From assembly GCA_028699255.1 (NCBI GenBank), contig JAQVUX010000006.1:89928-153927 (forward strand): 64,000 bases of DNA. The letters are read 5' to 3'. The translations under genes were made by a program, and so were the position numbers. The notes under the pieces were generated by a model, which saw only the letters and a list, made by a program, of their open reading frames with translations, was not told where the DNA came from and searched no databases. This DNA comes from Candidatus Omnitrophota bacterium. GTDB lineage: Bacteria > Omnitrophota > Gorgyraeia > 2-01-FULL-45-10. Below, piece after piece: positions 8,544 to 64,000 of the stretch. Position 1 is the first letter of the stretch; each line of letters opens with the position of its first letter.

Positions 8544-8585
8544 TGTTATTGGATAATTTGATATAAGAGTATATAATAACAAAAT

Positions 8586-22452: not shown

Positions 22453-22461
22453 ATTTGACTT

Positions 22462-23625: not shown

Positions 23626-23637
23626 ACATAGAGAGGT

Positions 23638-24000
23638 ATGCTTATGACAGAAGAAAAAAGTTGCCGTATATGCGGTAAGCCGTTCCTTCCCAATAAATAT
23701 CGTCCGAACCAGACGATATGTTCCTCTCTTGAGTGCCAGTACCAGCGCCAGCTTGAAAATATGAAGAAATGGCGCGATAGAAATCCGCATTATTTCAAAT
23801 ATAAAGAGACCCGGGATTCTTCCTGGAAGGAGACATGCCGCCAGCGTTCGCTCGATTGGCGCAAGAAACACCAGGAATATCTTAAACTTTATCGGGAAGA
23901 GCACCGTCAGCGCCATCGCGAGTACATGAGAGACTACATGAGGGAATATAGAAAACAGAATGGCTTGGCGGAAAAGAATATCCAGGATAGCAGTAAATAA
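23638..24000 (+). CDS. Zinc-ribbon (CxxC...C) basic protein, hypothetical
   Basis: 'CRICGKPF...CSSLEC' then R/K/E-rich tail. Confidence 0.45.
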   Translation: MLMTEEKSCRICGKPFLPNKYRPNQTICSSLECQYQRQLENMKKWRDRNPHYFKYKETRDSSWKETCRQRSLDWRKKHQEYLKLYREEHRQRHREYMRDYMREYRKQNGLAEKNIQDSSK

Positions 24001-24012
24001 TAAGGAAATCTT

Positions 24013-25683: not shown

Positions 25684-25718
25684 GGTATAGATAACCGGAT
25701 TTCGAAGAACTTAAGGAG

Positions 25719-26969: not shown

Positions 26970-26978
26970 GGCGGTATA

Positions 26979-30128: not shown

Positions 30129-30209
30129 AGCGGAGATATCCGCGTATAGATTATCAAAGTCAACCACAGGCCAACCTGCGTGGTTGATCGCGTAATATAA
30201 GGGATTCCG

Positions 30210-33200: not shown

Positions 33201-33341
33201 AACTTGTGGAGCCCGCTCGCTATAACAGTCATGGGAGGGCTGACATCCTCTACTATACTTACACTTCTTATAGTCCCCAATGCTTATATCATATCCGAAG
33301 ATATAAGAGTCTGGATAGCCGCCAAATTGAAGAAAAAGTAA
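30210..33341 (+). CDS. RND efflux transporter, AcrB/HAE1-type, pump 2 (tandem paralog)
   Basis: 1043 aa, 'GLALGVGMLVDNAIVVFENIVHK', same topology. Confidence 0.9.
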   Translation: MSLPTFSIKKPITMLVIYIMLVMSGIVSLAQLPVELYPNISFGEISIIIEVRGGIPPTEVEALVSKPVEEAVGSVSHLEEMMSISKEGESTVVLSFEPGINMEFAALDVREKFARVKNKLPKEIEKPIIAQFKRSDVPIVILAVTSLRRTTEEIRKIVDENVREAIKRISGVADAEVAGGRERKILIEADQRKMAACNLSLERLISAVGQNNLNLLSGDINKGNNKYIIRTIGLYTTVDDVKNIPVSAMPDGTMIRLKDVATVLDSYLEPSGYARVNIRPVVSIYVQKESTANTIKVAAQIEKEVERLKTVLPKDIQIVVTSNQANFIKSAIDNLKDALIKGAALVMLVLTIFLIRLDKKFMMIVLAILVSVVLMPPFLLLPLVIIMSIAFVSIARIRSVAIVSSAIPISVIITFTLMYAMKLTLNFMTLFGLALGVGMLVDNAIVVFENIVHKHEKGIEGIPAAIEGTEEVWVAILAGTLTHICVFLPMVFVGQEIKLLYGGVAWTVVFSLLISLFVAITVVPLLVSRSKIQLEKVTFLDNVYRLQRKWVVKFMRYRYRVMLFALILFLGSLFFFTRLGMEFLGTTEQNKFTAFIELPTGTKLDVTDTIVKKVEALIKEIPEVKTFSSRVEPWSSKVYVELVSLMQRKRSVGEVIESLRPKVERIRPAFIYFEEEQEVGTKEVVIELFGYDYAKLREIAISIATRLGTIKGFTDTKIRMREGRPELGLKVDRTRASLFDMTVSEVADSVHAQMRGLRATLFHTSSSEVETIARLDEKYRKTFKDVHKLILMNKNDDSIYLEQMTDFKYGLGPSEIWRKNKTRVIQVSANIGKLPLSKAAEMTKKALADLRLPEGYYWRLGGNYPTMVATQKQVWPILILTVLLIYLVLASLFESYHQPLIIMLAVPLALVGVVLSLYLTGKSVGMGVFVGMIMLGGIVVNNSILLIDHANNLRRQNINHVKAIILASRDRLRPILMTTSTTLLGLLPMAISTQEGSNLWSPLAITVMGGLTSSTILTLLIVPNAYIISEDIRVWIAAKLKKK

Positions 33342-33537
33342 CCGTTTACATAATTCCCTCTCCAAGGCAACCTATAGCGATAATCTATTCAAGCCTGAAT
33401 GCAGGATTATGCCATTTTTAACCGCATAGCGGCCAATTAAAAAATGTTTTTAAAGGTAACAAAAAACACATTCATAACTATTTAAAACATAAAGAGTTAT
33501 GAATACATTAGTATTTAAAAAAGCCAGCCATTACCTA

Positions 33538-33565
33538 TTGACAACATACTATTGTATGATATAAT
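33538..33565 (+). promoter_or_regulatory. Consensus sigma70-type promoter TTGACA-16-TATAAT upstream of giant gene
   Basis: Hexamers read directly at 33538..33543 and 33560..33565; RBS AAGGGGT before ATG 33640. Confidence 0.5.
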
Positions 33566-33639
33566 ATATACGTAAGACGTTTAAAAAGGTAGATTTAACA
33601 GGATAGCGGTATTAGCTTTTAAAAAGGGGTAATCTCAAA

Positions 33640-36600
33640 ATGTTAGCTTGGCAAAGCAAGACATTTATTAAGGGCGGACTCGTCTCTAACGACGTGTCTG
33701 TTCGCGAGGAGCTCGGCAACGCCTCTCTCATCATGGACTGGAGAAGTCCGCACAATAAGTGGTGGATGAGGATAGTTGCCGTAACTCTGACCCTTTGCTT
33801 TATATACCAAGATGTGGTATGGGCGCAGGATGGACAACCCGTATGGTCTAAGCCGGCTAATGAGAAATGGGGACAGTCCCCTTCGGGGACAGTTCCCATT
33901 TCTTTAAATACTAATATAGCAATACCGAAAGACATAGCTACAACCAAAGAAGCATATAATGGTAGTAACAGTTCTTCCCCCAAGACCATCATTCAGATCC
34001 AGGACGCCCACGCATCTTTAGCCGCCCAGGAATCCATATCCTCGATACTCGACTCGTTAGTTACCAACTACGATCTTAAGCTCGTAGCTGTGGAAGGCTC
34101 ATCAGGCTACATCGATACCTCGATCTTAAAGACATTCCCCGACGAAGGAATCCGCAGGAACACCGCAGAATATCTTATGCAGAAAGGTAAGATGTCGGCC
34201 GGAGAGTTCTATTCGGTTACAAGTAACAAGAATATCGCTTTATACGGCATAGAAGACAAAGATTTATACAAAGCTAACGTTGAAGAGTTCAAGAAGATAT
34301 ACGAGGCTAATCAGTCTGTCCGGAAAGACATCACAGGTCTTATAAATACCCTCAAAGCCATAGAAGACAAGGTCTACTCCAAAGAGTTAAAAGCCCTCGA
34401 GGATAACTCCGTATTAAACACCAACGGCAAGGTATCTTTTACAGACAGATGGGCGTATATAAGCGCTCTTGCCTCAAAGGTCGGTATAGATATAAATGGA
34501 AAAATGTCCCAGTCCAAGGGGACAGTCCCCTTCGGGGACAGTCCCCTTTTTCCCAACCTTTCAAAACTCGTCGAATCTATAAAGCTTGAAAAAGAGATCT
34601 CCTTCGATAAGGCCAACAAAGAGCGCGATGCCTTAATCGACGTCTTAAGTAAATCGATAACTAAGACAGAATTGGAGAAGCTCGTATTAAACTCCCTCTC
34701 ATTCAAACAGGGCAAGATAACCCAGGGCGAATACTACGTATTCCTCCAGGGACTGGCCAATGACAACAACGTATCACCCTTAAAGTACAAGAACCTCATA
34801 AACTTCACCGACTACATCACCCTCTATGAGTCGATAGACTTACTCGAGATATTCGAAGAGGCTAAAGTATTGGAAGATGCCATCAAAGACAGGCTCTACA
34901 CTTCCCCCGACCAGAGGAAGTTACACGACCTATTGAAGTGCGCTAACTTTATCAAAGACATCTTCGATCTTAAACTTACCAACTCCGACTTCGAATACTT
35001 GGCCAAGAGCTTAAAGACATGGAATGCGGATACGATTGCCCAATTCATTGAGGAAACAGGTAACCGCGTAGGTTACACCTCCGGTAACCGCGTAGGTAAC
35101 CTACGCGGTTGTACTGGTGACGATGGTTACGACCTCGATAACATCTTCTCGAATCTGCCCATAGCCATACAATTCTACAATACCGCGGAAAGACGTAACA
35201 ACGTCATCCTGAATAACACCATATCCCGTATGAATAAAGAAGGCCAGACAGTAGCGGCCCTTATCACAGGCGGCTACCACACCAAAGGTATATCCGAGCT
35301 ACTAAAGCAGAAAGAGACCTCCTATTTAGTAATATTACCTAAGTTCGACGCCTCAAAGCCTGAAAGGCCCTACGTAGCTATACTGACCAATAAGAAAGAC
35401 AACTATGAAGAGCTATTGGAATCGGGTAAGTACCAGCTATTAACCGATAACTACTTAAAAGACGGCATCCAGGACCCCAAGAAGATAGAAGGCTTTATTA
35501 AAGAGATAGTGGTTGTATCCATAGGCCAGGCGGCCATAGAGCGTAAAGACATCGCCAGTGTCAAGAAGCTGTGGATCGAGAGCTATCGCAGGTCGTACGA
35601 GGCCCTTATGGAGAAGGGGATAGTAAAGAAACCATCTTCCGAACCTGGTGCGGCAGAAGGTTCCAGCGAAAAGTTTTCCAAACCAGGTTTGGGCAAAGGA
35701 AACCGTTTCTACAAACCTGGTTTGGAAAGCCAGGAACAAGGTTATGGCGACCAGCATATAGCGACGACGACGAACTTTAGTCCGGTTGCTCTCGAGAAAT
35801 TTATTCAACTTATAGACGATATAAATGCCATCCGGATTAGCGATGCTGTGGCGGTTGTAGAGCTGGGCGATACGCGCTGGACGATAGCGATATCAAGCGA
35901 TAACACGATAACGCGACGTGAACCAACGCCCGCTGAGCTACGAGGATTTAATTCGCAACTGAGAAAAATCGCGTCGCAACCCGCTTCTACCGAACATGTT
36001 CCATCCGCCGCGCAACGTGTCAAAATCCTTGAGGGCACGACACGGGACTTATTGATCGACGCTATCGTAGAAAGAATGCATGGCGTTTCCACTGAAGAGT
36101 CGTTCGACGACGCTGTCCGCGGGAAAACAGCCTATACGAATTTGACCGTAGACGGCCAAAGAGAGATACGGCAAGCGGTTATGAATAGATTTAAACCTAT
36201 CGAAACCGCCCAAAAAGTTACTGTCGTCTCGCGTATTCCCGAAGCGTTCATAACAAGAAACGCTCAAGCGAAGAAGAATAAAGAAGAGAGAAGAGGCAAG
36301 ATCGAGGTAATAGTAAAAGACGCCGGTCAAGACGGCATTACTATAACAAAAATCCTTTCTCAGCTCACCGCCCAAGGCGTTACCGTAAGCCGTTCTACCG
36401 TATTTAATGACCTGAAAGAATTAGCCGCAAAGAGCGACGCAGTGATCACGATTGAAAAAGCCAGCGGTAAAGCGAATATATACAGGATTAGACCTCAAGC
36501 TACTCCGGTGCCGGAAGCCGCACCTATAGAAACGCCGCAGGCTGTAGCGCCTGTAGCGGAAGTTACTCCTGCGCCTGCAGTCGAAGCCGCACCAGCTCCG

Positions 36601-39600
36601 GAAACTCCAGAGCTGTCCCCGGAAGAAATCAGCCAAGCGGTAGACGAAGGTTTAGCCAGGCTTACAAGGCAAAATGACGGATTTGAACATGCGCTTATAA
36701 GATCCAAATTTACCACAAACGCCGAAAACAAATTACTCGCGACAGTAGAAATTTTAGTGGATAGCCGCGGAGTGCCGCGCTACTTAGCGGATGAGAAAAA
36801 CACGATATCCGATGAAGAGAGAAATACGCTTACCGAGGTTGCCGTAACAGTCGACGATACGGGAAGAATAAATCCAGAGACCATTGAAGTCTCGTCCCCA
36901 GAGAAATCAAAATTATCAGACCAGGCAAAAACAACACTTCAGCAAATAACCGCTAAATATAACAAACAACTGCCGTCTTCATTGCGAATAATCGCAAAAA
37001 GAGCCGTTTCCGCCGTAACCCATTTTATGGAGAATGCGTGGAGCGCGGCGAAGGAACATTTAGAAAGCATCTCCCCTGAACAAAAAAGAGTATATCTTAT
37101 TGTATTTATCATGGGAATTGCGGGGGTAGTTTCGGCGCTTATGTTCACATATTTGGCGTGCATAGGTAATTTAAATATTTCGCCCGTTAGTCTGCGTACC
37201 ACTGAAGGCGGTATCAATCTGATAGCAGCATTAGGGATTTCGGCTATTATAAGGAAATCAGCCGTCTCGCGTATTCCCGAAGCGTTCATAACAAGAAACG
37301 CTCAAGCGAAGAAGAATAAAGAAGAGAGAAGAGGCAAGATCGAGGTAATAGTAAAAGACGCCGGTCAAGACGGCATTACTATAACAAAAATCCTTTCTCA
37401 GCTCACCGCCCAAGGCGTTACCGTAAGCCGTTCTACCGTATTTAATGACCTGAAAGAATTAGCCGCAAAGAGCGACGCAGTGATCACGATTGAAAAAGCC
37501 AGCGGTAAAGCGAATATATACAGGATTAGACCTCAAGCTACTCCGGTGCCGGAAGCCGCACCTATAGAAACGCCGCAGGCTGTAGCGCCTGTAGCGGAAG
37601 TTACTCCTGCGCCTGCAGTCGAAGCCGCACCAGCTCCGGAAACTCCAGAGCTGTCCCCGGAAGAAATCAGCCAAGCGGTAGACGAAGGTTTAGCCAGGCT
37701 TACAAGGCAAAATGACGGATTTGAACATGCGCTTATAAGATCCAAATTTACCACAAACGCCGAAAACAAATTACTCGCGACAGTAGAAATTTTAGTGGAT
37801 AGCCGCGGAGTGCCGCGCTACTTAGCGGATGAGAAAAATACGATATCCGATGAAGAGAGAAATACGCTTACCGAGGTTGCCGTAACAGTCGACGATACGG
37901 GAAGGATAAATCCAGAAAACATCGAAGTATTTCATGGGAAAGAATTATCGGACCAGGCAAAAACAACACTTCAGCAGATAATCGCTAAATATAACAAACA
38001 ACTGCCGTATTCATTGCGAATATTTGCAAAACGTGCGTGGAATGCGGCGAGAGAAAAGCTGGGATCCGTATTAAGCATACAAAAGATCTCCCCGGATTTC
38101 CTTGCCCGCACGATATCTTACACATTAGCTGGGTCTTTAATACTCGCACTTTTTGTATTCTGGCAACCGGCCGCTTTTACAGGATTTGTTCACAATGTTG
38201 AATGGTTCCTCGGAACCGTTGTAAGCAGTACCTCGCTGTCCTATCACGGAGTAAGCCTTTCTGCCGGCAAGATCATGCTGGCATTATCTATGTTCGAGCT
38301 TGTCGCGACTCCTATCACGCTCGGACTTAAAATAATGCTTAAGAGGGCGGGGATGGCTGAAGATGTGCCGGTGGTTGATGCCACTTCCACAGCAGATGAG
38401 ATCAATGCGGCGATGAAGGCGCGTTTTGGCTATACGGTAGATGAGCTTCAGGCGGCCATGGAAGCCCAAGCGCTTAAACGCGCCACCGGTGAGCAGGGGG
38501 AGGTAGCGCTTAAAAAGATACGCGCGCTGTTTGAAGGCTTCGGGCATGATAAGTGGCAGTTGCTCCGAACTTATAAATTACTCGAATCGGGATGGTTCGA
38601 CACGCTGGGTGTTCTCGCGGCGGCAAGCAGGCGCCAGCGTCTCGGCCCGGTACTTAATTTCATCAACAATATGATAAACCCGATCGAGCTTTTAAAGATA
38701 ATATACGGTTTTTATCCGGCATTCTATCTGGAAAAGATAAAGCGATCGTTCCAGTCCGGAGGGGCCGAGCTTTTACAACTTAACGAAAAGCAGGCAGAGC
38801 AGGCTATGCCCATGTTTGGGACCTCTGACACGAGAGAGCTTGTTCTCGATATATTTGCCCGCTCTGTAATGCCGCGTATAGGCAATACCAAGTCCGTTTC
38901 ATCTTATATGTGGACCGGCGGTTTGCAGTATGTTTCAGCCGTGTGGGCCGATTCCATATATATTAAAGGAACATTGCAATTCATAAAAGCGCGGCTTACG
39001 CTCGCGTTCGCAAGCAGAGTAGGCTCGATCCTCATACTTACTCCGCTATCCTGGATGTTCAATCTGAACGGTCAATGGCTCGCCGGCGCCGCTCAGAAAT
39101 TCTTTAGCGGGCAGATGGGCCTGCAGTTGCCGGTGCCAGGCGCTGTGCCGGGCGTAGCCAATCTCGCGTCGAACGAGAATTTCCTATTCGGTTTTATACC
39201 GGGCATAGCGAAAACCATGGCCCCGATAAATTACGCCGGAGTAATGGCGCGCGAATTCATCATTTCCGGCGCGGCAAAACAGCTTACCTTGGCCGCCGTC
39301 GCGGGAGCATTCTCTACTACGTTTGTTCTTCGGATATTTGCCGGCGCTCGAAGGCTGTACAGTGATTATAGACAAACAGGGAAGATAAATATAGCCAAAT
39401 ACATGACAACTGCGGCTATTGTTGCCATGGTTATGAGTATCGGAAAATCTACATGGGGTATGTGGTTGGTCAATGTCGAAATACCGATGGTATTAGGCCA
39501 GGCCGCAGTTGCCGACAGGGTTATGTTTGGGCAGGGCGGCGGCACATATTTACATGATACACTGGCCCTTGTAGAAGGCCATGAAGGCGCCATAGGTGTA

Positions 39601-57600: not shown

Positions 57601-60600
57601 GACAGAAATTTCAGGCAGATACTTGTAAAGGCGCAGGCGGAAGGCCTTAGCACCCGGATAAAAACCGACATCGAAAGATATGTCGGAACTTTAGGTAGCG
57701 TCGAATACGCGTTGCCGCCGCAAGCTACATGGTCGCTCGAGAAGAATGCGCCGGAATTGGTCGGCAAAACGATAGTTACGCTTTCGATGGAAGGCAATAT
57801 CCCGGAATTTGAAGGATACGCCGCGCAGAATGCCAATACAAAAGGCGGTCTTGGCGCGTACTTTGGCGATAAGTTAGAAGGATTGTCGAAAGTAGGAGCC
57901 ACGGCTTACGGGATAACGCCCAGATATGCTATGGCCGGTGATCAGAATGTTGAGGCGGATTATCGGGAACTTGTTCGTAAAGGTATTTTAAAAAGAGTAC
58001 AGGGCCGCGACGGTAAGCCGTTAACATTGCGCGTTTCGGCGTGGGATGAATGGGATAAGGATAATGCCGATAACAATCCTGTTTATGATGTAGAGGTTTA
58101 TGTCGTAAATCGCGGCGGAACTCCTTTGTATGTACTCTCAATGCCAATGGTCTTTGACAGTTTATATACAGATAATCGCCTGCACCGCTATACGCAAGAG
58201 ATCGTTTTCGGGAAAGCGGCCTTCCAGTTAATGGAAAAACTCGGGCTACCTCCGGATATTTTACATTTGAACGAAGCGCATACCGTAGTAGCCGCGGCTC
58301 TTATTAAGGCGGATATAGCGAAAGCCAAATGGGCGCGGGAAAACCTTGGCTCAAGCCGCAAATCTGTTTTTGAAAACAAAAATATGAAAGTTGTGCTGAC
58401 GAACCATACGCTTGTTTCCGCCGGTATGGAGATGCATCAGCCGGAGCACATGTACAATGCGAATATAGACCGCATGCGGGCCATTCTCGAAATACCCGCA
58501 GAAGTCGCGGGCCAATATGGCAGTATGTTCCTCAAGAGGCATATACTCGATAGCGAAGATCACCCTATCAGCCCAGCATCGCTTAGCGCGATAGGCGTGC
58601 GATTGAATGAAAAGGGTGAACCTGCCGACGCGGATAGCTGGAAGCGTTTTAATGCGGCAGGCTGTAAGTACAGGATGATAGTCGATTTCTGCTACGCGGC
58701 TTTTAAACTGGCAGATGAGATGAACGCTGTAAGCGAAGAGCATGCTTTAGCGACCACAAACTTATTCAAAGCCCTTTACGGGAATGAGTTTAATAAAAAA
58801 GTTACAGGGATATTAAATGGTTCCGGTAATACATGGAAAAACCGGGAGCTTTTAAATGCTGAAACCGGTAATAATGTTCCGGACTCCAACGCGTTATATG
58901 ATATTCACGAGAAGGGCAAAAAAGAGGCTTACGCAGAAATAGAAGCGCGAACCGGAGTGAAGCTTAATCCGGATAAGCCGACGGTATGGCTCGTAAGACG
59001 GCTTGTGGAATATAAGAGCCAGTATCCGATACTCAGGTTTATAGTTCCTATAATCTGTTCCGGCAGGGGCGAGGTCTTTACCAGGGAAAAATTAATGAGG
59101 ATATGGATGGAAGATATCCCGGCTATGAGCGGCGCGGATGCCAATAGGCGCTATAACCGGGATATGCACGCTAAAGCTAACCGAATACTCGATATGCTAT
59201 TCGCCGGCAAGACCGAAATACGCGGATTGGATATGCAGATGGTGATTGCCGGCCCGGAGTATGAACATGGTTGGGTCAAGCGCTTCAAGTCATGGCATGC
59301 GAAATATGACGGCAACTTTGTTTACGTCCCGAATTCCGACGCAAAATTACTAAAGATGCAGGCGATAGGCTCTGATGTATGTCTTACTATACCGCGTCCG
59401 TTGGAAGAAGCGTGCGGTACGTCCGACCAAAGATCGGGTATGAACGGAGGCGTTACAGTTTCGATTAACGGCGCCGGCCCTGCCGAATGGGTTACGGAAT
59501 TTAATGAAGCTACTCTTGAGGGCAACGGATTCCTGATAGGTTCATATACAAAGATGACGCCGCAAGGCCTCGAGGCCGATATTGATGGATTCTACGCAGA
59601 TGCCCCGGCCGATGTATTTAATAAGCTCACAATTTGTTCGCGGCTATTTTACGAAAGAGGCACAAATCCCGCGTGGAAGCAATTGATGCATAATTCGTAC
59701 ACGGCCGCGAATTACGGCGCTCTGAGTAAGAAGGCGGTTACGGCCAAGGCGATGGAGGAAAGATACGCGGTGCGCGTATATGCGCCCGCGCTTAAAGCCG
59801 CCGCGGAAGTTTCGCAACAGCAGGTTGTTGCGGCATCCGCTATAAGCATACTTGCCGTAGCGGCCTCTACACCGCTTGGGTCATTTGTGAATCAGGTAAT
59901 AAATAATTCGTTGGATGCCATCGGAATGCCACACTGGCTGGCGGGTGTTATTATTATAGCGGCATTAGGTATAGCCGCGGTGATAAAAATAAAGAAGGCG
60001 GTTATCTCTTCGAAAATCACCGTCGGAATACCGCCCTCGGCAATCACTACACGCAAGGCGGCTATCGAAACTATCCTCAGCTCGGCAGGCGGTAAATACG
60101 AAGTGGTAACCGTCGATAATATCGCCTCATTCGCCGATGAGTCCGCCGGTAGAGGCACAGCGAGGATATTCATAGATAATGATATCTCCGAGGAAGCCAT
60201 AAAAGAGCACATCCTATTAGCGAAGCTCGCCACAAACTATTCCGGCGTATTGGCTACAGCCAATATAGACAGGGCATTGGTAAAAGAGATAACTGACCTC
60301 ATTAAAGATATCCTCGGCGATGATGCCATGAGCTTAAACGCCGCGGAAATATTCTCAAGGGTAAGCGAAGCCGTCAAAGATTCGGTTAAAAAAGAGAAGA
60401 TAGCCCGGTTAGCGGGGCTCGTAGTAACCCAGAGCCAGAATCTTACGTCATTCGCGAATAATCATTCCCCGAGATTCAATCCATCCGCGAGAAAAGAAGA
60501 CTCGGCCATCGCCACAGCCGCGACAGACACAATAGCCGCCAAGTCGCTTGAATTCGCCGATGATGTACGTCGTAACGCCGCGGAAGGCCGCAAAACATCG

Positions 60601-61077
60601 CTCATATACGGCGAAGTTTACAAAACGCCTCAGCAAGCCGAAGCTTTCATAAGAGCGCTCGGCCTGAACATGGCAAACATAGAGCTCATTGACGGTAATG
60701 CCCTGGGCTATGACAACGATACGATAGTCGCGCAGATAGCGAAGTCTACGCCCGGATTAAATGAAGCAAAGATAGGCATAAGAGCGGCTGTAGGCCAGAT
60801 TAAGGGTAGGCCTACTAAAGGCAAGCTATTGGAAGTGCCGTCAGTCACCATAGGCGGCAAGAATGTCCTTGTCACGATGAATACGGAAAAGGTATTAGTC
60901 AGGATGCTGCAACTACCGCCTGATAGTGTCGCGGTGGAAGAGCTCGGTATCCAGGGTCTTGCCTATGATCAGGAGACCAACCGGTATGTGTATCTACAAC
61001 CGATCGTGCCGATCAACTACGCCGAGGAGATAGAGACGTATCGCGCGGCGATATTGGTACTGGCCGCCGCGGCGTAA
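33640..61077 (+). CDS. Giant gene: 27,438-nt uninterrupted ORF encoding a 9,145-aa multi-pass membrane mosaic protein (glycosidase-like + GT35 phosphorylase-like domains, internal repeats)
   Basis: Single open frame in ORF track with no in-frame stop for 27.4 kb; own promoter and RBS; terminator-like hairpin downstream. Confidence 0.85.
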   Translation: MLAWQSKTFIKGGLVSNDVSVREELGNASLIMDWRSPHNKWWMRIVAVTLTLCFIYQDVVWAQDGQPVWSKPANEKWGQSPSGTVPISLNTNIAIPKDIATTKEAYNGSNSSSPKTIIQIQDAHASLAAQESISSILDSLVTNYDLKLVAVEGSSGYIDTSILKTFPDEGIRRNTAEYLMQKGKMSAGEFYSVTSNKNIALYGIEDKDLYKANVEEFKKIYEANQSVRKDITGLINTLKAIEDKVYSKELKALEDNSVLNTNGKVSFTDRWAYISALASKVGIDINGKMSQSKGTVPFGDSPLFPNLSKLVESIKLEKEISFDKANKERDALIDVLSKSITKTELEKLVLNSLSFKQGKITQGEYYVFLQGLANDNNVSPLKYKNLINFTDYITLYESIDLLEIFEEAKVLEDAIKDRLYTSPDQRKLHDLLKCANFIKDIFDLKLTNSDFEYLAKSLKTWNADTIAQFIEETGNRVGYTSGNRVGNLRGCTGDDGYDLDNIFSNLPIAIQFYNTAERRNNVILNNTISRMNKEGQTVAALITGGYHTKGISELLKQKETSYLVILPKFDASKPERPYVAILTNKKDNYEELLESGKYQLLTDNYLKDGIQDPKKIEGFIKEIVVVSIGQAAIERKDIASVKKLWIESYRRSYEALMEKGIVKKPSSEPGAAEGSSEKFSKPGLGKGNRFYKPGLESQEQGYGDQHIATTTNFSPVALEKFIQLIDDINAIRISDAVAVVELGDTRWTIAISSDNTITRREPTPAELRGFNSQLRKIASQPASTEHVPSAAQRVKILEGTTRDLLIDAIVERMHGVSTEESFDDAVRGKTAYTNLTVDGQREIRQAVMNRFKPIETAQKVTVVSRIPEAFITRNAQAKKNKEERRGKIEVIVKDAGQDGITITKILSQLTAQGVTVSRSTVFNDLKELAAKSDAVITIEKASGKANIYRIRPQATPVPEAAPIETPQAVAPVAEVTPAPAVEAAPAPETPELSPEEISQAVDEGLARLTRQNDGFEHALIRSKFTTNAENKLLATVEILVDSRGVPRYLADEKNTISDEERNTLTEVAVTVDDTGRINPETIEVSSPEKSKLSDQAKTTLQQITAKYNKQLPSSLRIIAKRAVSAVTHFMENAWSAAKEHLESISPEQKRVYLIVFIMGIAGVVSALMFTYLACIGNLNISPVSLRTTEGGINLIAALGISAIIRKSAVSRIPEAFITRNAQAKKNKEERRGKIEVIVKDAGQDGITITKILSQLTAQGVTVSRSTVFNDLKELAAKSDAVITIEKASGKANIYRIRPQATPVPEAAPIETPQAVAPVAEVTPAPAVEAAPAPETPELSPEEISQAVDEGLARLTRQNDGFEHALIRSKFTTNAENKLLATVEILVDSRGVPRYLADEKNTISDEERNTLTEVAVTVDDTGRINPENIEVFHGKELSDQAKTTLQQIIAKYNKQLPYSLRIFAKRAWNAAREKLGSVLSIQKISPDFLARTISYTLAGSLILALFVFWQPAAFTGFVHNVEWFLGTVVSSTSLSYHGVSLSAGKIMLALSMFELVATPITLGLKIMLKRAGMAEDVPVVDATSTADEINAAMKARFGYTVDELQAAMEAQALKRATGEQGEVALKKIRALFEGFGHDKWQLLRTYKLLESGWFDTLGVLAAASRRQRLGPVLNFINNMINPIELLKIIYGFYPAFYLEKIKRSFQSGGAELLQLNEKQAEQAMPMFGTSDTRELVLDIFARSVMPRIGNTKSVSSYMWTGGLQYVSAVWADSIYIKGTLQFIKARLTLAFASRVGSILILTPLSWMFNLNGQWLAGAAQKFFSGQMGLQLPVPGAVPGVANLASNENFLFGFIPGIAKTMAPINYAGVMAREFIISGAAKQLTLAAVAGAFSTTFVLRIFAGARRLYSDYRQTGKINIAKYMTTAAIVAMVMSIGKSTWGMWLVNVEIPMVLGQAAVADRVMFGQGGGTYLHDTLALVEGHEGAIGVGNTIFDRTLSMLGIGAPVAEQAPAPATIPSVPQAEKAEAAKVIAPTVEKPLEIAKPVVVPEKAAVKSTVAQAPAPLREKELAQTPSAPITEKAKRVTVFKPVAVTKPVEALPPRVESSEAKTREAALSDNRSRGALAYKTEMAAYDAANNNKDYSGAFAHLDKSINIIEALIKNGNSDLPGMLAQLKATRQDLLQRYAFGDPDGYKNTIAAYIEINARYDSDLKKYNAAAKAGNAKDALKYATLCASEIREMLAAGAAKLYPQLERASKKWSDIENYQRTKSASPVVKSQETAKVTTKDELAENAIQYWAESQILRGRYLEAIQKTANLKAEYDNYINKSIKLRGISPVIDARLKTLAGEIAASQRAEKNALKAMSALKDAAEKKEADIKSFRYKNLLKAYSIANDHYAKAAGDRELALEYLEEMIIIAGKMAQLYDKNADVKELLKQLQARVPVRYPILANSYLNVIRQLTFANKNGKIDSLTLQKASFKLNKEILKELQAIKTTPRFVRTREERLYDGRALGNEKSEWPRREIKDINEEIKIIEQFVADNEAKLRAKDLQYKFLRGEKSFSDYKKEAAAIFSKFGFKISIPAREADARSAIIEDAIVTEQIAASSVRSQLQEISEELGRRTLTPQNKGYVRRDSLRQAIQSRLDEVNGRIKSLQVAEKAVKEGKPLPKGLDLPVIELEEPKADMAKLRPLLVEPTVEMLGIPHAPAELKPFVADIIKQGLGIDNPSDKSIDILAHLFSRYFETHYFVHADERAQYFKLMTAILRELKAQGFFESQEVLLPGEEMSSMWSANLSGPVSNSEVQLLTKTFPEKRSELSVINRLGFASSMACHIMRVRYIDNSAPDNLLSDLQAVPEGQMDNYVKLLVSNILKLKPRMESAIGMSVSISSLGRTGWGCVMSAAVYLSAARSVNLSPVINSGKDRFDVRGLVFPSFGIDADSVPSSWLKKAVGPGGSIRENAEFYGPDNDKERILIGPTFDNADLNMIPVSIILGKRAEQGAIETLTNLWNFKGIYRVDDNVSEAIRIREILSVYLEYMGEPSDAEIAASPELRNEFAEWDRIIAQSNDPYVRQKEMSAKDEARQEMRDSILLGNAMYWWERARKERHDFSVAEFRELMKQVKADSVDAIQILKLIHGKDYQPDFHRAADMGWLISYSLPRLLESKESADKTVPAQGPVSPRGMSRIEAFNLLLDADKDGNLRDLTEKYLAKTGSLVNYGKLTPTALLDPQVWGKIQFLASNYLEGKEAPSAVKNFAGMVKARIRMIDAAERLGQTKDKVISVYEGTREEALKAYINSQESAHRRVMGARPVSDAMRRAWEKRFASQWDLYHTMKKAYIETKASEYKKDAGVSDVPKELFSIWGSEFPGMYWEGNLSSEAENFEKKATEKQVEKEIIVRPPTEEIKSIKTPVAKPAAQPASEKGAQTIPAIPSFARMLFNALIGQHPANIDSLAPKDYPVWGISTADNPENPEQYEELGAPIGSKDRANKGYPDKQIITPYAAVLALDCAPKEAVRNITQILNRYPQAIGKYGPYDSIDLKSGAVSNTYVADNKGMEFITIANYFSGGAVQKYFSGSSIVKQALPLLNENFSRMKMPDGLSLEKNISKEEKETLLKLEKAAWDYFADNSNASTNWLPPNRINSGESKSYTSITNIGLYLAGIVAAEKRGYITSDEAKDRLSKALDAISKLDTWNGLFRNYYDLGTLKSSTKSDRLISPVDNGWLAAGLIVAGEAHPELKDKAHGVVTGMQFGHLYDKNAGNLVNNYDENSGPASSHYGLIYTEIRPTLIIAIGLGKLNKDPSVPIVPETAWHSTARTLPADWDWQAQRPDDSYYSYKVNVNGKEETVCFVPSWGGSMFEGLMPNLFIDNKIYSPKGYAIQDAVYVFLHKYFATGASAQKVETPVTQPVKVAPAEKPAVAVPSPEAKILPIVTREQAVSQESLVSGVPQTPESPLVIPGYISDAIAGAKPGNTADEGVEAVLKLRELLSILADEKVFSIADEGGAFDNALISYEKKRSAELNKLFKGNDKLAKSVLREELKNFAVQYRGGVINSTANTFFFDLGISDPGVVEKIIRADKYIDMVGKSNKHPLSAPEVGNWRKEFLERVYLTEAERKLNEDPKRELLIKRMGERKDLDDWRGSKLSGKAGEAYRYISDLFRLIAYLETAAIDVSEDIKKEEKVQEGRPVDDYAALNTLLEAYRATGKAIPAIEVLAAKTQSADFAFWRSARDHIEELEQLKNTLLTEQDFAKRPDEITRILEKAKDLRSYAKKDPVRGLLIQQFVDLADPENPAKAITADDKKTYVNESPSNMAFAKVNALLLGMDQVIKMMKKNRAEELKTMKEFSDTMFEERIRIAEELRAHELKASEFNEDWQKNKTGWAGRVWSRMFGSSAESRAIEAERKRSDDFRTALYDYSVLYNCYLSRQKTPFETAIAEAQFLYEKLTKERTRENIADLEWYEAARAAKKELFYKTYLQMVSKSVGRELKGGDLSFMFKEITLDPYMRRQKDNYKQKLGNDYPENVKEQMGERFVSDKIAEYVKLEALVMELEANLRKNQEIPEYAPQFSRGITTATYMEYDEKNMSYDEKARNIREWFKDASLCQRFAKKYLGYYFGYYTLQHVVRTMREDDRATPVLFEKPDRAEANFKSKYSTDLAYKNYGPRLNNMHDTGYALRVTFDAVDDNRYDLLLKELDRINGGKASGEIRMVRDEAVERLGSFHNELAKLLLRFYNSKPRESVERDVTELEKEALAGIIENLTINLETRNKEYADANKKIWENAAERQELIKEVRRNRKRGYDSLERFDRTNTVGRLSIEMNDALKVANRVMPPDAKISINQERIDYFVTQCMESGMTPMEQVDIAFIKPQALRKIYVEIFGKEPTPHQWEDIRFYVESKMDLDGWTEDNVRVCIVYGEYIREIYKTLPGARQPNDGETKMLVEHMLKNGILPINTNVREMNIEPNRITVKALIEKRLAPERVIKLTADILTTLERKEYGKLSGEEEFINQVFYLMGYVLDTNIVEKPEDAKPSYNKEALVKNIGDRLKGLNIEGSGYTTQELAGKIVDNIINRGLQADNFPALVDRLLQMKTRINKVDDIIRDKKTKAKSEGREFEFNEEQRADIVPISENDLNILAVLDDSRQNRSDGIGIAEIAGFKRDSSAWKRLKEDVKKPIDALWGGLLNSEAESRYNAIRGKIIDAAFARYKGKYTKEYLGSMVDRLIRAGLYTPEGELTEVAKIAGLQKAVLSMRGVEPSSDTEELKRQLDRIRDNAPEDILEKAELAAWQKTAQLFGVSDIAATKVGIKEQLAARLLTLEKNIKEAAELAGLRALATEEFGINNPGRNIIEATDQIQRSARENKVPFVNESEYLVDLRAKAGALGVTTRAGASNEKELLNKAIAEAEEKLPRTLKYYADNAFLRYFAAEIGVSAKSGDETSVRKEAADEARAKAEVMLNEAKLEGLKTEARLLGITSADSDAEGLQAQIDAEARSIKTKESEVLDKVKTGLSVDSTAMFKSMAKIGIISSVVTLSLSLLGYVIRNLRKWLNLLRAKPQAAEQPQEAARAAVPAPQAVPVSPGAPIEPQIAPTAPVPATIVDNTKNTERKFWSKGLWDMSFMMMKLSVQISVAYSLLFKGPVSPFAGWAFNFGALGTFLKSVWAYFFTSGIIDFDSFGVFLQSASHDLQALAPFAAVGLAIGVVTLIMNQVVKYGRQSVGIRILKEKPGFAGTLHLIAKSAFLAPVLAFASYFFISKGNLIATSGAGNAIWLFSSPVIVLGAIFAIIYVSNKLLIKAFPRSSTLRSISVLGITVAGIATIAMFLPGGLFSNFANVFTFGVYAYIIGKFSFRTFEFISSALQIPARFVWDREGEKAWSKEALWDGWKHFKGSLNNFVFEGVLFSTTMVYVFVTQNMFTSVGWLVALGAALYYYSNNSAASLTAGQVFYIGKNFVKTTSFALSIYFFAQIGIALSGGAAVASISQNLGYIVLITVINIFVDTLRRSIFGKDYIGTPKEAVISKTGKGDAENTVVQVQNTRNEYGEAVISSLGVLFRSFANNRSAVGSAIFTSDTAQGPLKTMELILASMEQLRHGESSAFIAGRNNLPGVTGPAHGKKWGGYQQFFVALYFGFMHHIAYTGRENDQRDQIFVYEKGGKKFFGEHLKNSRRTYGDDSVRDSNDNIREVLIEEEDCDFYIKLKEGDNKFVYEEIVVVDNNNPSQNLTGVVFDTRHYLIDCENKDKILRVVADGIFEFKKDVENYNGKPGAWVLVAKTDQIKLTEDGYLIDPENAVKDIKDFYGNILPKRVRPAIVQQVTGKDINGNRRVLRLEKTGDIIDPITGKKAGTIFDKSAQKMYYGVDANYNRTNLLMTSKLFRKGEWEYVDDTTKDAVRDTTTGIIYKKGPYTNLAMDKNTGAMFLKFAGKTLDFGDGRLIPLERVRAFSPESVNPLVDNIIKRRGEFLIHGDNLVTDNNGQPVKVKDFWGEDVLISLDNAYVDSHGNLIHSNVTELLAVKEAWEIDPYTGDAVVKGSGFRGDGHILAAKNKWVADKDGKLYARGITQSEADYAAKTGVYGLLDKLNLGLTGVENNWYIEDPEHRLPLAGYPVQRVRNGWVVNEGKGFSLDASGNVVYTPNWLRVGWLSDETFGELPALTIPASNVKSISKDITKINYAKDNRLEHIEILADFGSYYKDDKGSYYKRRKVGYLDEISGEPVWYGEAPPGTVRLDLKGGLWVDTPDSLDLTAWAGRGYEIGIAQNGNLVAIKALADKAEYEIDRVTGNARITSGANKGQQYRVGTFLRVGEYGSYRFILSLEPRKTQLPYDIYPDIQGIGADGLISSDHLMANPTLMEYLVQAPQRPRAIDQTDSENEIMDNDTAEKLSVAVRNREGFDPDKLYYTIFGILQRELYMTNAGESEYAYLGGTAHDMLNYIAAMNKWSFEESSAYGKMFDVLGIYALNVIFTEAIPPFARCHDHWEALKAYALLLPGFWRDKERFVGDEYLSPNIVKMAQVQGWMPGDITLFYYEISALKVILDALSGLWPKASRSIDDLHEKHPFSAGSGKAMSIILYGAFGTLAFAVWLMALGVVSVLVPGLREAQDAWRSNLLFGIVMLVMIEISKAVISGIKRLFEQERNDYIVRLFGKDIVISKALVNLIFTAFFVALTIDVGYLGLSPLISKTIAPNIASGKSVVGDAAAYFAIAFGITNALIYFWSMSVTALKNNKAIRRAPILYQPGKDKAYSWAKSVTRYLIIPAILASAMFAIGHFFPDHSPLALIRDQFVHLKYVPSARFVPALVNMIFYNIVPYILPFYLIMGNLSSIAARYLEKKFGWQLLYVNTDIYDVSYKAQWETLNSTNLLMVWLFYQPMAFFKSLFVVGVKRLEPAWVTAAKLALEYSGGYKLWESWTGKDFKVNKQMLFAVIPAVIFACFTWKTDSWFGYTMYGIWLAYIIWISGTQKTPTALILPVVFSLTLLLATAVMGLDSSIVLMGFPIYIWSFLFAPYKNWTTGMFGGSPHYSTNSMVEATRQIRVWEQRYLLGMGKPVEDSEAVKKIIGLDKFFRDGKNEPTMLNQRDKLRLLLFHLTNINLNINPIFEQYIDKALEARRPEEEARLRTKGFIVESRRWPRFQEFDKSRERAFAILDELRGNAALRTQYGNEKLEQLINEEKNRWILRDAVNKAIIRRAHELAGIKRLREKDWDTLSVLTRLEILLELLKSKDIDVRSAADNALTTLGAADNRNVAETTALMNALAAIINRMGPRAYNITDWEKLRRSEQSGFINSVLKYFSITGARAKYIRTLSKPFRKSTAPATSPVVMKGGVEGGRYEIVTADIIDGAIQNYNGVGYEDTDTKLRQDLNNAIKRIFTLDGFSEEAKTKIAAKIMSLLGDQASINALLQNKKLRVVEGNDRLMHFTESADTITLDIDALLHNNDLLFMELVHELLHAKLAATQTRAGPAADLATRIQEEIEVTTQEVELFLAFPKDAQDRILAALAADNDLDDRNFRQILVKAQAEGLSTRIKTDIERYVGTLGSVEYALPPQATWSLEKNAPELVGKTIVTLSMEGNIPEFEGYAAQNANTKGGLGAYFGDKLEGLSKVGATAYGITPRYAMAGDQNVEADYRELVRKGILKRVQGRDGKPLTLRVSAWDEWDKDNADNNPVYDVEVYVVNRGGTPLYVLSMPMVFDSLYTDNRLHRYTQEIVFGKAAFQLMEKLGLPPDILHLNEAHTVVAAALIKADIAKAKWARENLGSSRKSVFENKNMKVVLTNHTLVSAGMEMHQPEHMYNANIDRMRAILEIPAEVAGQYGSMFLKRHILDSEDHPISPASLSAIGVRLNEKGEPADADSWKRFNAAGCKYRMIVDFCYAAFKLADEMNAVSEEHALATTNLFKALYGNEFNKKVTGILNGSGNTWKNRELLNAETGNNVPDSNALYDIHEKGKKEAYAEIEARTGVKLNPDKPTVWLVRRLVEYKSQYPILRFIVPIICSGRGEVFTREKLMRIWMEDIPAMSGADANRRYNRDMHAKANRILDMLFAGKTEIRGLDMQMVIAGPEYEHGWVKRFKSWHAKYDGNFVYVPNSDAKLLKMQAIGSDVCLTIPRPLEEACGTSDQRSGMNGGVTVSINGAGPAEWVTEFNEATLEGNGFLIGSYTKMTPQGLEADIDGFYADAPADVFNKLTICSRLFYERGTNPAWKQLMHNSYTAANYGALSKKAVTAKAMEERYAVRVYAPALKAAAEVSQQQVVAASAISILAVAASTPLGSFVNQVINNSLDAIGMPHWLAGVIIIAALGIAAVIKIKKAVISSKITVGIPPSAITTRKAAIETILSSAGGKYEVVTVDNIASFADESAGRGTARIFIDNDISEEAIKEHILLAKLATNYSGVLATANIDRALVKEITDLIKDILGDDAMSLNAAEIFSRVSEAVKDSVKKEKIARLAGLVVTQSQNLTSFANNHSPRFNPSARKEDSAIATAATDTIAAKSLEFADDVRRNAAEGRKTSLIYGEVYKTPQQAEAFIRALGLNMANIELIDGNALGYDNDTIVAQIAKSTPGLNEAKIGIRAAVGQIKGRPTKGKLLEVPSVTIGGKNVLVTMNTEKVLVRMLQLPPDSVAVEELGIQGLAYDQETNRYVYLQPIVPINYAEEIETYRAAILVLAAAA
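33991..36267. repeat. 2.28-kb long direct repeat, copy 1 (5' region of giant gene 1)
   Basis: Near-identical to 61724..64000 (offset 27,733 bp); spot-checked lines identical. Confidence 0.9.
36225..37262. repeat. Intragenic tandem repeat unit 1 (1,038 bp = 346 aa) within giant gene
   Basis: First ~690 bp near-identical to 37263..37928; identical antisense ORFs at +1038 offset in track. Confidence 0.9.
37263..38040. repeat. Intragenic tandem repeat unit 2 (partial, diverging after ~690 bp)
   Basis: See unit 1. Confidence 0.85.
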
Positions 61078-61118
61078 TTTAGGATTTGTAACAAGGGTAG
61101 GGAGATTACCCTAACAAA

Positions 61119-61171
61119 CCATCCCCGTTTCTTGAGGGCTTTTGCCAAGCGGTCTTCAAGAGCGGGGATGG
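61119..61171 (+). terminator. Imperfect hairpin CCATCCCCG...CGGGGATGG downstream of giant gene 1 (weak T-tract)
   Basis: 9-bp perfect outer arms with longer imperfect stem, 41 nt after stop. Confidence 0.4.
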
Positions 61172-61207
61172 ACTATTTTAAGGTATAAAATAGTTAGATT
61201 TACCATA

Positions 61208-61235
61208 TTGACATGCCGATTTAATATGGTATAAT
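61208..61235 (+). promoter_or_regulatory. Consensus sigma70-type promoter TTGACA-16-TATAAT upstream of second giant gene
   Basis: Hexamers at 61208..61213 and 61230..61235. Confidence 0.5.
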
Positions 61236-61259
61236 TATGTAAACGTTAAAAAAGTTATA

Positions 61260-61281
61260 TTTTCCACCCCGGGGTGGAAAA
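61260..61281. promoter_or_regulatory. 22-bp perfect palindrome TTTTCCACCCC|GGGGTGGAAAA in leader of second giant gene (same core as 16326..16351)
   Basis: Seen directly; lies ~25 nt downstream of -10 and 28 nt upstream of TTG start. Confidence 0.5.
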
Positions 61282-61308
61282 ACAGAAGACTTGGCATAAG
61301 GAGGCAGT

Positions 61309-64000
61309 TTTGTTAGAAGCTTGGCACTCAAAAAATACGCTTGGCACACGCGAGGAGCTCGGCAACGCCTCTCTCATCATGGACTGGAGAAGTCCGCACA
61401 ATAAGTGGTGGATGAGGCTGGTGGCCGTAACTCTGACCCTTTGCTTTATATACCAAGATGTGGTATGGGCGCAGGATGGACAGCCCGTATGGTCTAAGCC
61501 GGTTAATGAGAAATGGGGACAGTCCCCTTCGGGGACAGTTCCCATTTCTTTAAATGCTAATATAGCAATACCGAAAGACATAGCTACGGTAAAAGAGGCG
61601 TACAAAGCCTCATCCATCCCTCGACGCGGCCAAAATTATTCTTCGAGCCTGGCCGAAGACCGTGTCGAGAAGGATAATTTTGGCCTTGCTCGGGATGAAT
61701 CTGAATCAAAATCAAAAACCGTGATTCAGATCCAGGACGCCCACGCATCTTTAGCCGCCCAGGAATCCATATCCTCGATACTCGACTCGTTAGTTACCAA
61801 CTACGATCTTAAGCTCGTAGCTGTGGAAGGCTCATCAGGCTACATCGATACCTCGATCTTAAAGACATTCCCCGACGAAGGAATCCGCAGGAACACCGCA
61901 GAATATCTTATGCAGAAAGGTAAGATGTCGGCCGGAGAGTTCTATTCGGTTACAAGTAACAAGAATATCGCTTTATACGGCATAGAAGACAAAGATTTAT
62001 ACAAAGCTAACGTTGAAGAGTTCAAGAAGATATACGAGGCTAATCAGTCTGTCCGGAAAGACATCACAGGTCTTATAAATACCCTCAAAGCCATAGAAGA
62101 CAAGGTCTACTCCAAAGAGTTAAAAGCCCTCGAGGATAACTCCGTATTAAACACCAACGGCAAGGTATCTTTTACAGACAGATGGGCGTATATAAGCGCT
62201 CTTGCCTCAAAGGTCGGTATAGATATAAATGGAAAAATGTCCCAGTCCAAGGGGACAGTCCCCTTCGGGGACAGTCCCCTTTTTCCCAACCTTTCAAAAC
62301 TCGTCGAATCTATAAAGCTTGAAAAAGAGATCTCCTTCGATAAGGCCAACAAAGAGCGCGATGCCTTAATCGACGTCTTAAGTAAATCGATAACTAAGAC
62401 AGAATTGGAGAAGCTCGTATTAAACTCCCTCTCATTCAAACAGGGCAAGATAACCCAGGGCGAATACTACGTATTCCTCCAGGGACTGGCCAATGACAAC
62501 AACGTATCACCCTTAAAGTACAAGAACCTCATAAACTTCACCGACTACATCACCCTCTATGAGTCGATAGACTTACTCGAGATATTCGAAGAGGCTAAAG
62601 TATTGGAAGATGCCATCAAAGACAGGCTCTACACTTCCCCCGACCAGAGGAAGTTACACGACCTATTGAAGTGCGCTAACTTTATCAAAGACATCTTCGA
62701 TCTTAAACTTACCAACTCCGACTTCGAATACTTGGCCAAGAGCTTAAAGACATGGAATGCGGATACGATTGCCCAATTCATTGAGGAAACAGGTAACCGC
62801 GTAGGTTACACCTCCGGTAACCGCGTAGGTAACCTACGCGGTTGTACTGGTGACGATGGTTACGACCTCGATAACATCTTCTCGAATCTGCCCATAGCCA
62901 TACAATTCTACAATACCGCGGAAAGACGTAACAACGTCATCCTGAATAACACCATATCCCGTATGAATAAAGAAGGCCAGACAGTAGCGGCCCTTATCAC
63001 AGGCGGCTACCACACCAAAGGTATATCCGAGCTACTAAAGCAGAAAGAGACCTCCTATTTAGTAATATTACCTAAGTTCGACGCCTCAAAGCCTGAAAGG
63101 CCCTACGTAGCTATACTGACCAATAAGAAAGACAACTATGAAGAGCTATTGGAATCGGGTAAGTACCAGCTATTAACCGATAACTACTTAAAAGACGGCA
63201 TCCAGGACCCCAAGAAGATAGAAGGCTTTATTAAAGAGATAGTGGTTGTATCCATAGGCCAGGCGGCCATAGAGCGTAAAGACATCGCCAGTGTCAAGAA
63301 GCTGTGGATCGAGAGCTATCGCAGGTCGTACGAGGCCCTTATGGAGAAGGGGATAGTAAAGAAACCATCTTCCGAACCTGGTGCGGCAGAAGGTTCCAGC
63401 GAAAAGTTTTCCAAACCAGGTTTGGGCAAAGGAAACCGTTTCTACAAACCTGGTTTGGAAAGCCAGGAACAAGGTTATGGCGACCAGCATATAGCGACGA
63501 CGACGAACTTTAGTCCGGTTGCTCTCGAGAAATTTATTCAACTTATAGACGATATAAATGCCATCCGGATTAGCGATGCTGTGGCGGTTGTAGAGCTGGG
63601 CGATACGCGCTGGACGATAGCGATATCAAGCGATAACACGATAACGCGACGTGAACCAACGCCCGCTGAGCTACGAGGATTTAATTCGCAACTGAGAAAA
63701 ATCGCGTCGCAACCCGCTTCTACCGAACATGTTCCATCCGCCGCGCAACGTGTCAAAATCCTTGAGGGCACGACACGGGACTTATTGATCGACGCTATCG
63801 TAGAAAGAATGCATGGCGTTTCCACTGAAGAGTCGTTCGACGACGCTGTCCGCGGGAAAACAGCCTATACGAATTTGACCGTAGACGGCCAAAGAGAGAT
63901 ACGGCAAGCGGTTATGAATAGATTTAAACCTATCGAAACCGCCCAAAAAGTTACTGTCGTCTCGCGTATTCCCGAAGCGTTCATAACAAGAAACGCTCAA
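61309..64000 (+). CDS. Second giant gene, 5' partial view (TTG start with AGGAGG RBS); paralog of 33640..61077, continues beyond window
   Basis: Translation 'LLEAWHSKNTLGTREELGNASLIMDWRSPHNKWWMRLVAVTLTLCFIYQDVVWAQDG...' parallels giant gene 1 N-terminus; open to window end. Confidence 0.75.
61724..64000. repeat. 2.28-kb long direct repeat, copy 2 (5' region of giant gene 2; runs off window)
   Basis: See copy 1. Confidence 0.9.

Follow-up and report, generated by a model that had tools for sequence, protein, structure and literature searches.

A giant gene and a second gene in tandem in an Omnitrophota contig

The giant genes described from Omnitrophota are very long, membrane-associated, multidomain open reading frames (ORFs) with carbohydrate-active domains; a complete genome of the phylum encodes a median of two long proteins, and assemblies fragment at these loci (bioRxiv 10.1101/2023.11.21.568195; bioRxiv 10.64898/2026.06.07.730766). 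West-Roberts et al. further reported that the N-terminal regions of the giant proteins generally have no identifiable domains, that the proteins are possibly cleaved into smaller polypeptides, and that assembly errors occur around adjacent giant genes, one adjacent pair being really a single gene (bioRxiv 10.1101/2023.11.21.568195). Here we analyze 64,000 nucleotides of a Candidatus Omnitrophota bacterium (GenBank assembly GCA_028699255.1, contig JAQVUX010000006.1, positions 89,928 to 153,927 of the forward strand), a stretch that we refer to as the window. It carries a giant gene (gene 1) followed in tandem by the 5' part of a second gene (gene 2) that repeats more than 2 kb of gene 1. The repeated segment encodes most of the N-terminal region shared by the two proteins, which we call the head.

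Concerted evolution of neighboring paralogues is familiar in bacteria from the duplicated tuf genes and the rRNA operons. The present locus shares with such cases sharp tracts of near-identity in directly oriented, otherwise diverged duplicates, but differs in that the converted part would be the 5' head of giant genes and in that the exactness of the match may be inflated by assembly. Silent-cassette variation systems, such as pilE/pilS and vlsE, also have a partial-looking second copy adjoining an expressed gene; in contrast to these, copy 2 of the present locus has full expression signals, and it is the conserved rather than the variable part that is duplicated. The features on which the comparison depends are as follows.

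33538-33565, forward: promoter of gene 1, TTGACA-N16-TG-TATAAT, 12/12 positions of the sigma-70-type consensus
33640-61077, forward: giant gene 1, an uninterrupted ORF of 9,145 amino acids (aa) ending in TAA
33991-36267, forward: copy 1 of the 2,277-bp exact segment, comprising the head domain and linker and reaching into the tandem unit
61078-61309, forward: 232-nt intergenic region between genes 1 and 2, with hairpins, promoter, palindrome, and ribosome-binding site (RBS)
61119-61171 and 61172-61194: terminator-like hairpins, fold energy -49.5 kcal/mol, z = -6.1
61208-61235, forward: promoter of gene 2, TTGACA-N16-TG-TATAAT, 12/12 positions of the sigma-70-type consensus
61298-61304, forward: RBS of gene 2, AAGGAGG
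61310-64000, forward: gene 2, TTG start at 61310-61312, no stop in the 897 codons to the window end
61349-61587, forward: first high-identity tract, 97.5% identical to 33703-33941 (239 bp, 6 mismatches)
61588-61723, forward: diverged patch with a gene-2-specific insertion, 24 of 124 columns identical
61724-64000, forward: second tract, 100.0% identical to 33991-36267 over 2,277 bp
62795-62843, equivalent to 35062-35110: GTAACC hairpin with perfect 15-nt arms, within the second tract
63958-64000, forward: entry into the 1,038-bp tandem unit, 43 nt identical to the sequences starting at 36225 and 37263

Identity profile of the duplicated segment

A BLASTN comparison of the last 3 kb against the window aligned 61715-64000 with 33982-36267 at an offset of 27,733, with just three mismatches (61717, 61721, and 61723). 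An earlier reading of this DNA from its sequence alone (hereinafter the sequence-only reading) had described the part from 61724 to the window end as near-identical at this offset; the match is stronger than that, without a single difference over a length that cannot have arisen by chance, and it does take in both the GTAACC hairpin and the first 43 nt of the tandem unit. Upstream of it, the first tract encodes a conserved leader, REELGNASLIMDW, the transmembrane anchor (61403-61471), and one GGGGACAGTCCCC palindrome, and its six mismatches comprise two synonymous changes, one each for A73V and T91A, and two that jointly give I45L. Between the tracts, copy 2 has 127 nt (61588-61714) where copy 1 has 40 nt, a net gain of 87 nt or 29 codons. 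The sequence-only reading had recognized this insertion and the peptide that it encodes and had put its size at about 84 nt. The insertion is peculiar to gene 2, being absent from 12 of 12 aligned relatives, and it had no exact match in the contigs of the GTDB species-representative genomes, among which this metagenome-assembled genome (MAG) is not included. A 58-nt palindrome with 17-nt arms lies inside the diverged patch (61628-61685; fold energy -47.6 kcal/mol, z = -4.9). Farther upstream, the promoters and 5' leaders of the two genes barely align (103 of 226 columns identical, 46%).

Identity between the two copies thus moves in sharp steps, from 46% to 97.5%, through the diverged patch, and up to 100%, which makes gene conversion a plausible source of the similarity, one of the two that the sequence-only reading had proposed, the other being recent duplication. 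A sharply bordered tract of high identity inside diverged duplicates, the pattern by which gene conversion is recognized, is present here, and all six mismatches among the 2,516 aligned bases fall within the first 239 (nonuniform distribution, p about 7e-7). On the basis of this profile, we consider it probable that gene 2 truly exists as the second of the head-bearing long genes in a tandem array and that the two genes are old paralogues whose heads were recently homogenized by gene conversion or unequal recombination. The barely aligning promoters and leaders and the diverged patch at codons ~92-137 would then be remnants of the old divergence, with the patch of gene 2 having acquired a palindromic insertion. 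Most of the head, on the other hand, would have been homogenized in at least two events between the neighboring copies, leaving one tract at 97.5% and another, 2.36 kb or longer, in which identity reaches or approaches 100%.

Gene 2 and its expression signals

The second gene that the sequence-only reading placed directly after gene 1 is an open frame following a 232-nt spacer, and NCBI calls the same ORF (PHS46_06265, MDD3906112.1), annotated as a partial hypothetical protein of 925 aa from Candidatus Omnitrophica bacterium and 100% identical to our translation. The TTG start of that reading is also the one used by NCBI (protein P0001, MLEAWHSK...), although its position is 61310 and not 61309. 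Also borne out is the claim of an independent consensus promoter for each copy: the two are the only perfect sigma-70 promoter matches in the 64-kb window on either strand, with one in front of each gene. Given that each gene has its own strong promoter and that a terminator-like hairpin follows gene 1, the two genes would be separate transcription units, and we infer from these signals that gene 2 is expressed. Its 5' leader additionally contains, between promoter and RBS, a perfect 22-nt palindrome, TTTTCCACCCCGGGGTGGAAAA (61260-61281), which is absent from the leader of gene 1 and may have a regulatory role. An Rfam search of 60900-64000 retrieved nothing credible, with one subthreshold match to a small RNA (E = 0.68).

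These signals bear directly on the other suggestion of the sequence-only reading, namely, that copy 2 is a silent cassette or pseudo-copy donating sequence to vary an exposed N-terminal region of gene 1. Two adjacent copies with a conversion-like identity profile are indeed what such a system would present. However, a donor of this kind has no promoter, RBS, or start of its own and differs from its recipient in the exchanged region. Copy 2 instead possesses a perfect promoter (one of the two best matches in the window), a strong RBS, a start conserved across the family (the MxAW leader), and 925 open codons in an intact frame, and with 0 differences over 2,277 bp the copies are identical, so that nothing would be varied. 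Moreover, the duplication covers the region that is best conserved in the family, not a variable one, and it is the bodies downstream that vary. We therefore regard a cassette function as extremely improbable.

It might also be supposed that there is no second gene and that a chimeric contig end joined the 3' end of gene 1 to a second head. The feature does lie at a contig end inside repeats, and assembly errors around adjacent giant genes have been reported (West-Roberts et al.). An independently assembled k=31 Logan contig from run SRR22315503, for which a literature search gave no result, provides a counterargument. It corresponds to window positions 22309-33732 with 0 mismatches in 11,424 nt. 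Its end lies exactly 30 nt (k-1) inside the sequence that the two 5' ends have in common, of which the first base is 33703 in gene 1 and 61349 in gene 2. A break at that 30-mer implies that the reads contain two left-hand contexts, which supports the presence of both leaders in the sample; it speaks to the two 5' ends and not to the 2.3-kb segment itself. Further, the leader, patch, and insertion of gene 2 are unique sequence, no repeat is present at the junction of gene 1 with the intergenic region that could cause a false join, and the 232-nt gap, which contains a terminator-like hairpin, a promoter, and an RBS, is in keeping with the arrangement at 23 loci of other genomes. Together, these observations make a chimeric join very improbable. 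A distinct proposal, in which an assembly error divided a single gene into genes 1 and 2 (as in the pair of West-Roberts et al.), is rejected in view of the stop codon, the terminator-like hairpin, the promoter, the RBS, and the complete N-terminal head of gene 2.

The contig end and the exactness of the repeat

The NCBI contig is 154,011 bp long and ends at window coordinate 64084-64086, 84-86 nt past the window and still inside the identical stretch; accordingly, the 28 residues of MDD3906112.1 that extend past the window are identical to gene 1 aa 877-904. Because the contig ends inside an exact repeat, neither the length of gene 2 nor the 3' limit of its likeness to gene 1 can be read from it. 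Two elements of the sequence-only reading, the description of gene 2 as giant and the confinement of the similarity to the 5' end, thus go beyond what the contig shows. The repeat in question is a 576-nt exact one starting at 63958, and the contig stops 127-129 nt into it. On the account favored above, the repeats would have stopped the assembler. We read the stop as the probable end of a path at a node of a k=127 de Bruijn graph, as built by SPAdes-type assemblers.

The same signature raises the question of whether the 5' end of gene 2 is real while its long exact identity to gene 1 was partly or wholly made by the assembler, either by bulge collapse or by a path threaded into the head of gene 1. 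The stop falls 127-129 nt into the first k-mer common to 63958, 36225, and 37263, as a k=127 node would have it. In such a graph, a difference between the copies is kept only if the exact runs around it are below 127 nt in length (the 239-nt tract has runs of 69, 59, 19, 52, and 31 nt), and tandem heads elsewhere are far more diverged. Merging over 2.3 kb of graph, however, needs sparse differences, at most about one per 127 nt, and copies merged in this way would still be at least about 99% identical. Mis-threading, for its part, would require a fork within the segment that was left unresolved, and there is no sign of one; biological conversion tracts also agree with the observed identity profile. 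An assembler-made identity is therefore unlikely in our estimation.

Another way in which a contig could come to end like this is a recent tandem duplication of all 27.7 kb of the unit, from the head through the body and tail to the intergenic region, with the body of gene 2 collapsed onto that of gene 1. A collapsed tandem duplication gives the graph topology A-R-B-C-R, identity persists to the very end of the contig, and the protein database yields no separate body for gene 2. Yet a duplication of the entire unit would not give promoters and leaders that align at only 103 of 226 columns, a diverged patch, or an older tract at 97.5%, and we consider it quite improbable. As for the missing body, a homologue search of a 5.8-billion-protein database with gene 1 aa 905-2400 found only the overlap of P0001 with the tandem unit; since gene 1 itself is absent from that database, the failure to find the remainder of gene 2 is a weak negative. 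JGI metagenome contigs scanned for close relatives gave a best match of 62% identity, at a contig end.

Several points weigh against homogenized old paralogues as well. The copy number of two for the 2.3-kb segment is that of the assembly. A SPAdes-type assembler would probably pop isolated paralogue differences more than 127 nt apart as bulges, and the apparent 100% may thus really be about 99.2% or more, whereas a true identity of at least about 99% over the second tract would still be expected. Conversion on this scale was not seen elsewhere, other heads being at most 79% identical at the DNA level, although assemblies tend to lose such cases. Finally, the lack of any protein resembling gene 1 aa 905-2400 in the above database counts here too, with the limited power already noted.

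The conserved head domain

The duplicated segment represents the N-terminal head, a conserved region in a very large protein family of Omnitrophota, and the head consists of a short leader, a single membrane anchor, and a domain of ~500 residues. We found at least 588 loci encoding it in the GTDB species representatives, all of them in Omnitrophota. A profile search of 1.84 billion cluster representatives recovered 6,730 proteins at a threshold of E<=1e-30 (8,762 at E<=1e-10), with the head at the extreme N terminus in 150 of the 150 matches listed and protein lengths of up to 7,834 aa. In other genomes, the ORF that starts with the head continues, at most loci, past the end of the locus DNA (more than ~3,300 aa); likewise, it stands at the N terminus of the 9,145-aa gene 1 product, while the ORF of gene 2 is cut by the contig end at 925 codons. 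In a tblastn search with the whole of gene 1 against the head loci, the head (aa 1-~750) was recovered in ~87 places, the body only sporadically, and the tail at three gene ends. Many of the head-bearing GTDB records (L008, L016, L018, L022, L025, and others; L numbers denote loci) are titled "uncultured Planctomycetia bacterium," which is probably a labeling issue in the deposited MAGs.

The leader (MxAW...REELGxxSLIMDW) and the single hydrophobic anchor, which spans aa 37-64 as a helix in the structure model, are present in genes 1 and 2 and in the 12 aligned relatives (alignment A1). Across 28 of 28 sequences, the residues D122, A123, H124, Q130, E152, G153, R519, N526, G544, G545, and H547 are invariant. 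In gene 2, the corresponding predicted catalytic-type motifs are IQDAH (61730-61744), VEGSSG (61823-61840), AERRNN (62918-62935), and TGGYHT (62999-63016). The domain displays a TIKI/TraB/EreA-like alpha/beta core that is split by a large helical insert of ~300 residues, with the parallel beta-sheet flanked by helices that is seen in Bcr135, ChaN, and RRSP. Proteins of this superfamily have conserved catalytic His and Glu residues (2His/2Glu), and the D122-x-H124, E152, and H547 constellation of the head echoes the E-x-H...E...H of RRSP, with the same 28-residue spacing between His and Glu. On these grounds, we describe the head as TIKI-like in fold and possibly an active hydrolase.

Sequence comparisons do not place the head within the TIKI/TraB/EreA/ChaN families, as no family profile matched it. 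Pfam models, including TraB, Erythro_esteras, and Cofac_haem_bdg, gave no match to 28 full-length heads or eight core-only constructs even at E<=10, a sequence-profile search of PDB with the head found nothing, and a Foldseek comparison against PDB was not significant. Compared with the described TIKI/TraB/erythromycin-esterase/ChaN proteins (RRSP, Bcr135, and HopBA1; PMC6254334), the head is set apart by its fusion to a membrane anchor and by its position at the front of very long proteins.

Tandem arrays and efflux operons in relatives

Tandem arrays of head-bearing long genes are, as a rule, the normal and widespread layout in the phylum, so that the array of giant paralogues proposed in the sequence-only reading has ample parallels. 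On contig PLNN01000019.1, an operon coding for a TolC-like OEP, a membrane fusion protein (MFP), and two resistance-nodulation-division (RND) proteins precedes four head genes on one strand, at ~19, 48, 80, and 90 kb, with long open frames between them; its operon proteins are 60-79% identical to those of the window. Additional tandem same-strand head genes are found at L024, L034, and L055, and at the closest GTDB relative, L005, a long ORF is followed after a 169-nt gap by a head gene. For 50 head-gene starts in other Omnitrophota, the DNA upstream extended over 3 kb or more, and we tabulated their neighbors on that side: in 23 cases the neighbor is an ORF of 1,000 aa or more on the same strand, in 14 it is an RND operon, and in 13 it is something else. 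The gap to the upstream long ORF is 130-2,430 nt in the 23 loci, compared with 232 nt in the window. The 14 loci at which, as in the window, the head gene is immediately preceded on the same strand by such an operon (a TolC-like OEP, an MFP, and AcrB-type RND genes, either one or two) are L001, L002, L013, L016, L020, L023, L027, L032, L038, L040, L058, L060, L064, and L075. Such co-location may point to a functional link between the RND pump and the long genes.

What sets genes 1 and 2 apart is their near-identity, because tandem heads elsewhere reach at most 79% DNA identity (33-65% residue identity for heads in the same genome or next to each other). A search of other genomes for long near-identical, conversion-like tracts between heads found none. 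Locus L079 (Candidatus Omnitrophus magneticus, JYNY01000197.1) has two divergent head genes and a 1,608-bp perfect inverted repeat (1-1608 and 7047-8654).

Term searches of West-Roberts et al. and Nielsen & Lui gave no mention of a TIKI/TraB-like head, a link to RND operons, or head-to-tail arrays. The thousands of long Omnitrophota proteins that share this one unannotated N-terminal head, with its TIKI/TraB-like fold and invariant Asp/His/Glu/His, and whose genes are often chained head to tail and frequently lie behind an RND efflux operon, invite a broader proposal, which we offer as speculative and rather unlikely. The locus would belong to a very large undescribed class of head-body-tail arrays behind an RND/TolC pump, in which the head serves as an active hydrolase or protease of the TIKI type, responsible for processing either the giant polypeptide or the targets of that polypeptide, and in which near-identical heads recombine to expand, delete, or swap bodies. 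Should the head act as a processing enzyme, it would offer a concrete candidate for the cleavage of giant proteins. Direct repeats of 2.3 kb that are separated by 27.7 kb also lead one to predict that RecA could mediate the deletion or amplification of an entire giant gene. On the practical side, the locus, with a tandem paralogue where the contig ends, shows why short-read assemblies break up at giant genes and cautions that an "exact" repeat may owe part of its exactness to the assembly graph.

Gene 1, its internal repeat, and the upstream operon

Beyond the duplicated head, the following features of gene 1 and its surroundings were delineated.

24013-33341, forward: OEP (TolC-like), MFP, and a pair of AcrB-type RND genes immediately preceding gene 1, the conserved front of the array; Pfam matches to OEP, HlyD_D23, and, twice, ACR_tran
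36225-38031, forward: internal tandem repeat of gene 1, period 1,038 bp, directly after the head; the first 576 nt of both units (36225 and 37263) are identical
59710-61074: C-terminal tail of gene 1, aa ~8690-9145, with relatives at L010 (4733-5866), L022 (6147-7235), and L024 (18983-19654)

The head of gene 1 occupies aa 1-~700 and is followed by a variable body and, at the C terminus, by a ~350-aa tail common to a few relatives. The tail is preceded by two hydrophobic segments and shows 27-30% identity to the ends of three other family genes, which suggests an architecture of conserved head, variable body, and conserved tail. Pfam matches in the body are to glucoamylase-like, DUF3131, and Glyco_transf_5 domains. 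Each 1,038-bp unit encodes a winged-helix-like domain with weak Pfam matches to FUR/HTH (aa 884-946), an Ala/Pro-rich linker, and a hydrophobic segment, and the true number of units is uncertain, the assembly being a short-read one. A similar repeat (701 nt, 99% identity) is located just after the head at L035.

Like the published giant genes of Omnitrophota, gene 1 is a long, multidomain, membrane-associated ORF from the same phylum, but at 9,145 aa its product is below their 10- to 30-kaa classes, and a Pfam search detected no SecA_DEAD domain in it. Of two features of the archaeovorin-type giant proteins of West-Roberts et al., gene 1 has the numerous transmembrane regions, with 14 strongly hydrophobic segments in a Kyte-Doolittle scan (a crude method), and lacks the divergent SecA DEAD/preprotein-binding domain. 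A SecA DEAD domain does occur in some other head proteins, namely, in the head protein P0003 and in the ORF after the head gene at L003. Upstream of the RND operon and a ROK-family regulator, 19711-22452 encodes a 913-aa protein made up nearly entirely of TPR repeats (TPR_12, E = 3e-164).

Palindromic elements in the heads

The head coding sequence of gene 1 contains in-frame hairpins with 13- to 19-nt arms at 33863-33903, 34518-34548, 35062-35110, and 35675-35728. Their copies in gene 2 are at 61509-61549, 62251-62281, 62795-62843, and 63408-63461, and the hairpin at 61628-61685 is found in gene 2 only. The window has eight perfect hairpins whose arms are 12 nt or longer; five of them sit in the two heads, compared with none in the other ~25 kb of gene 1; the heads of other genomes show no hairpin enrichment. 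The head hairpins all fall in low-confidence loops, those checked against relatives are insertions, and the GGGGACAGTCCCC unit is translated in two frames, as WGQSPSGTVP and GTVPFGDSP. They resemble in-frame insertions of small palindromic DNA elements and can be compared with the palindromic elements of Rickettsia.

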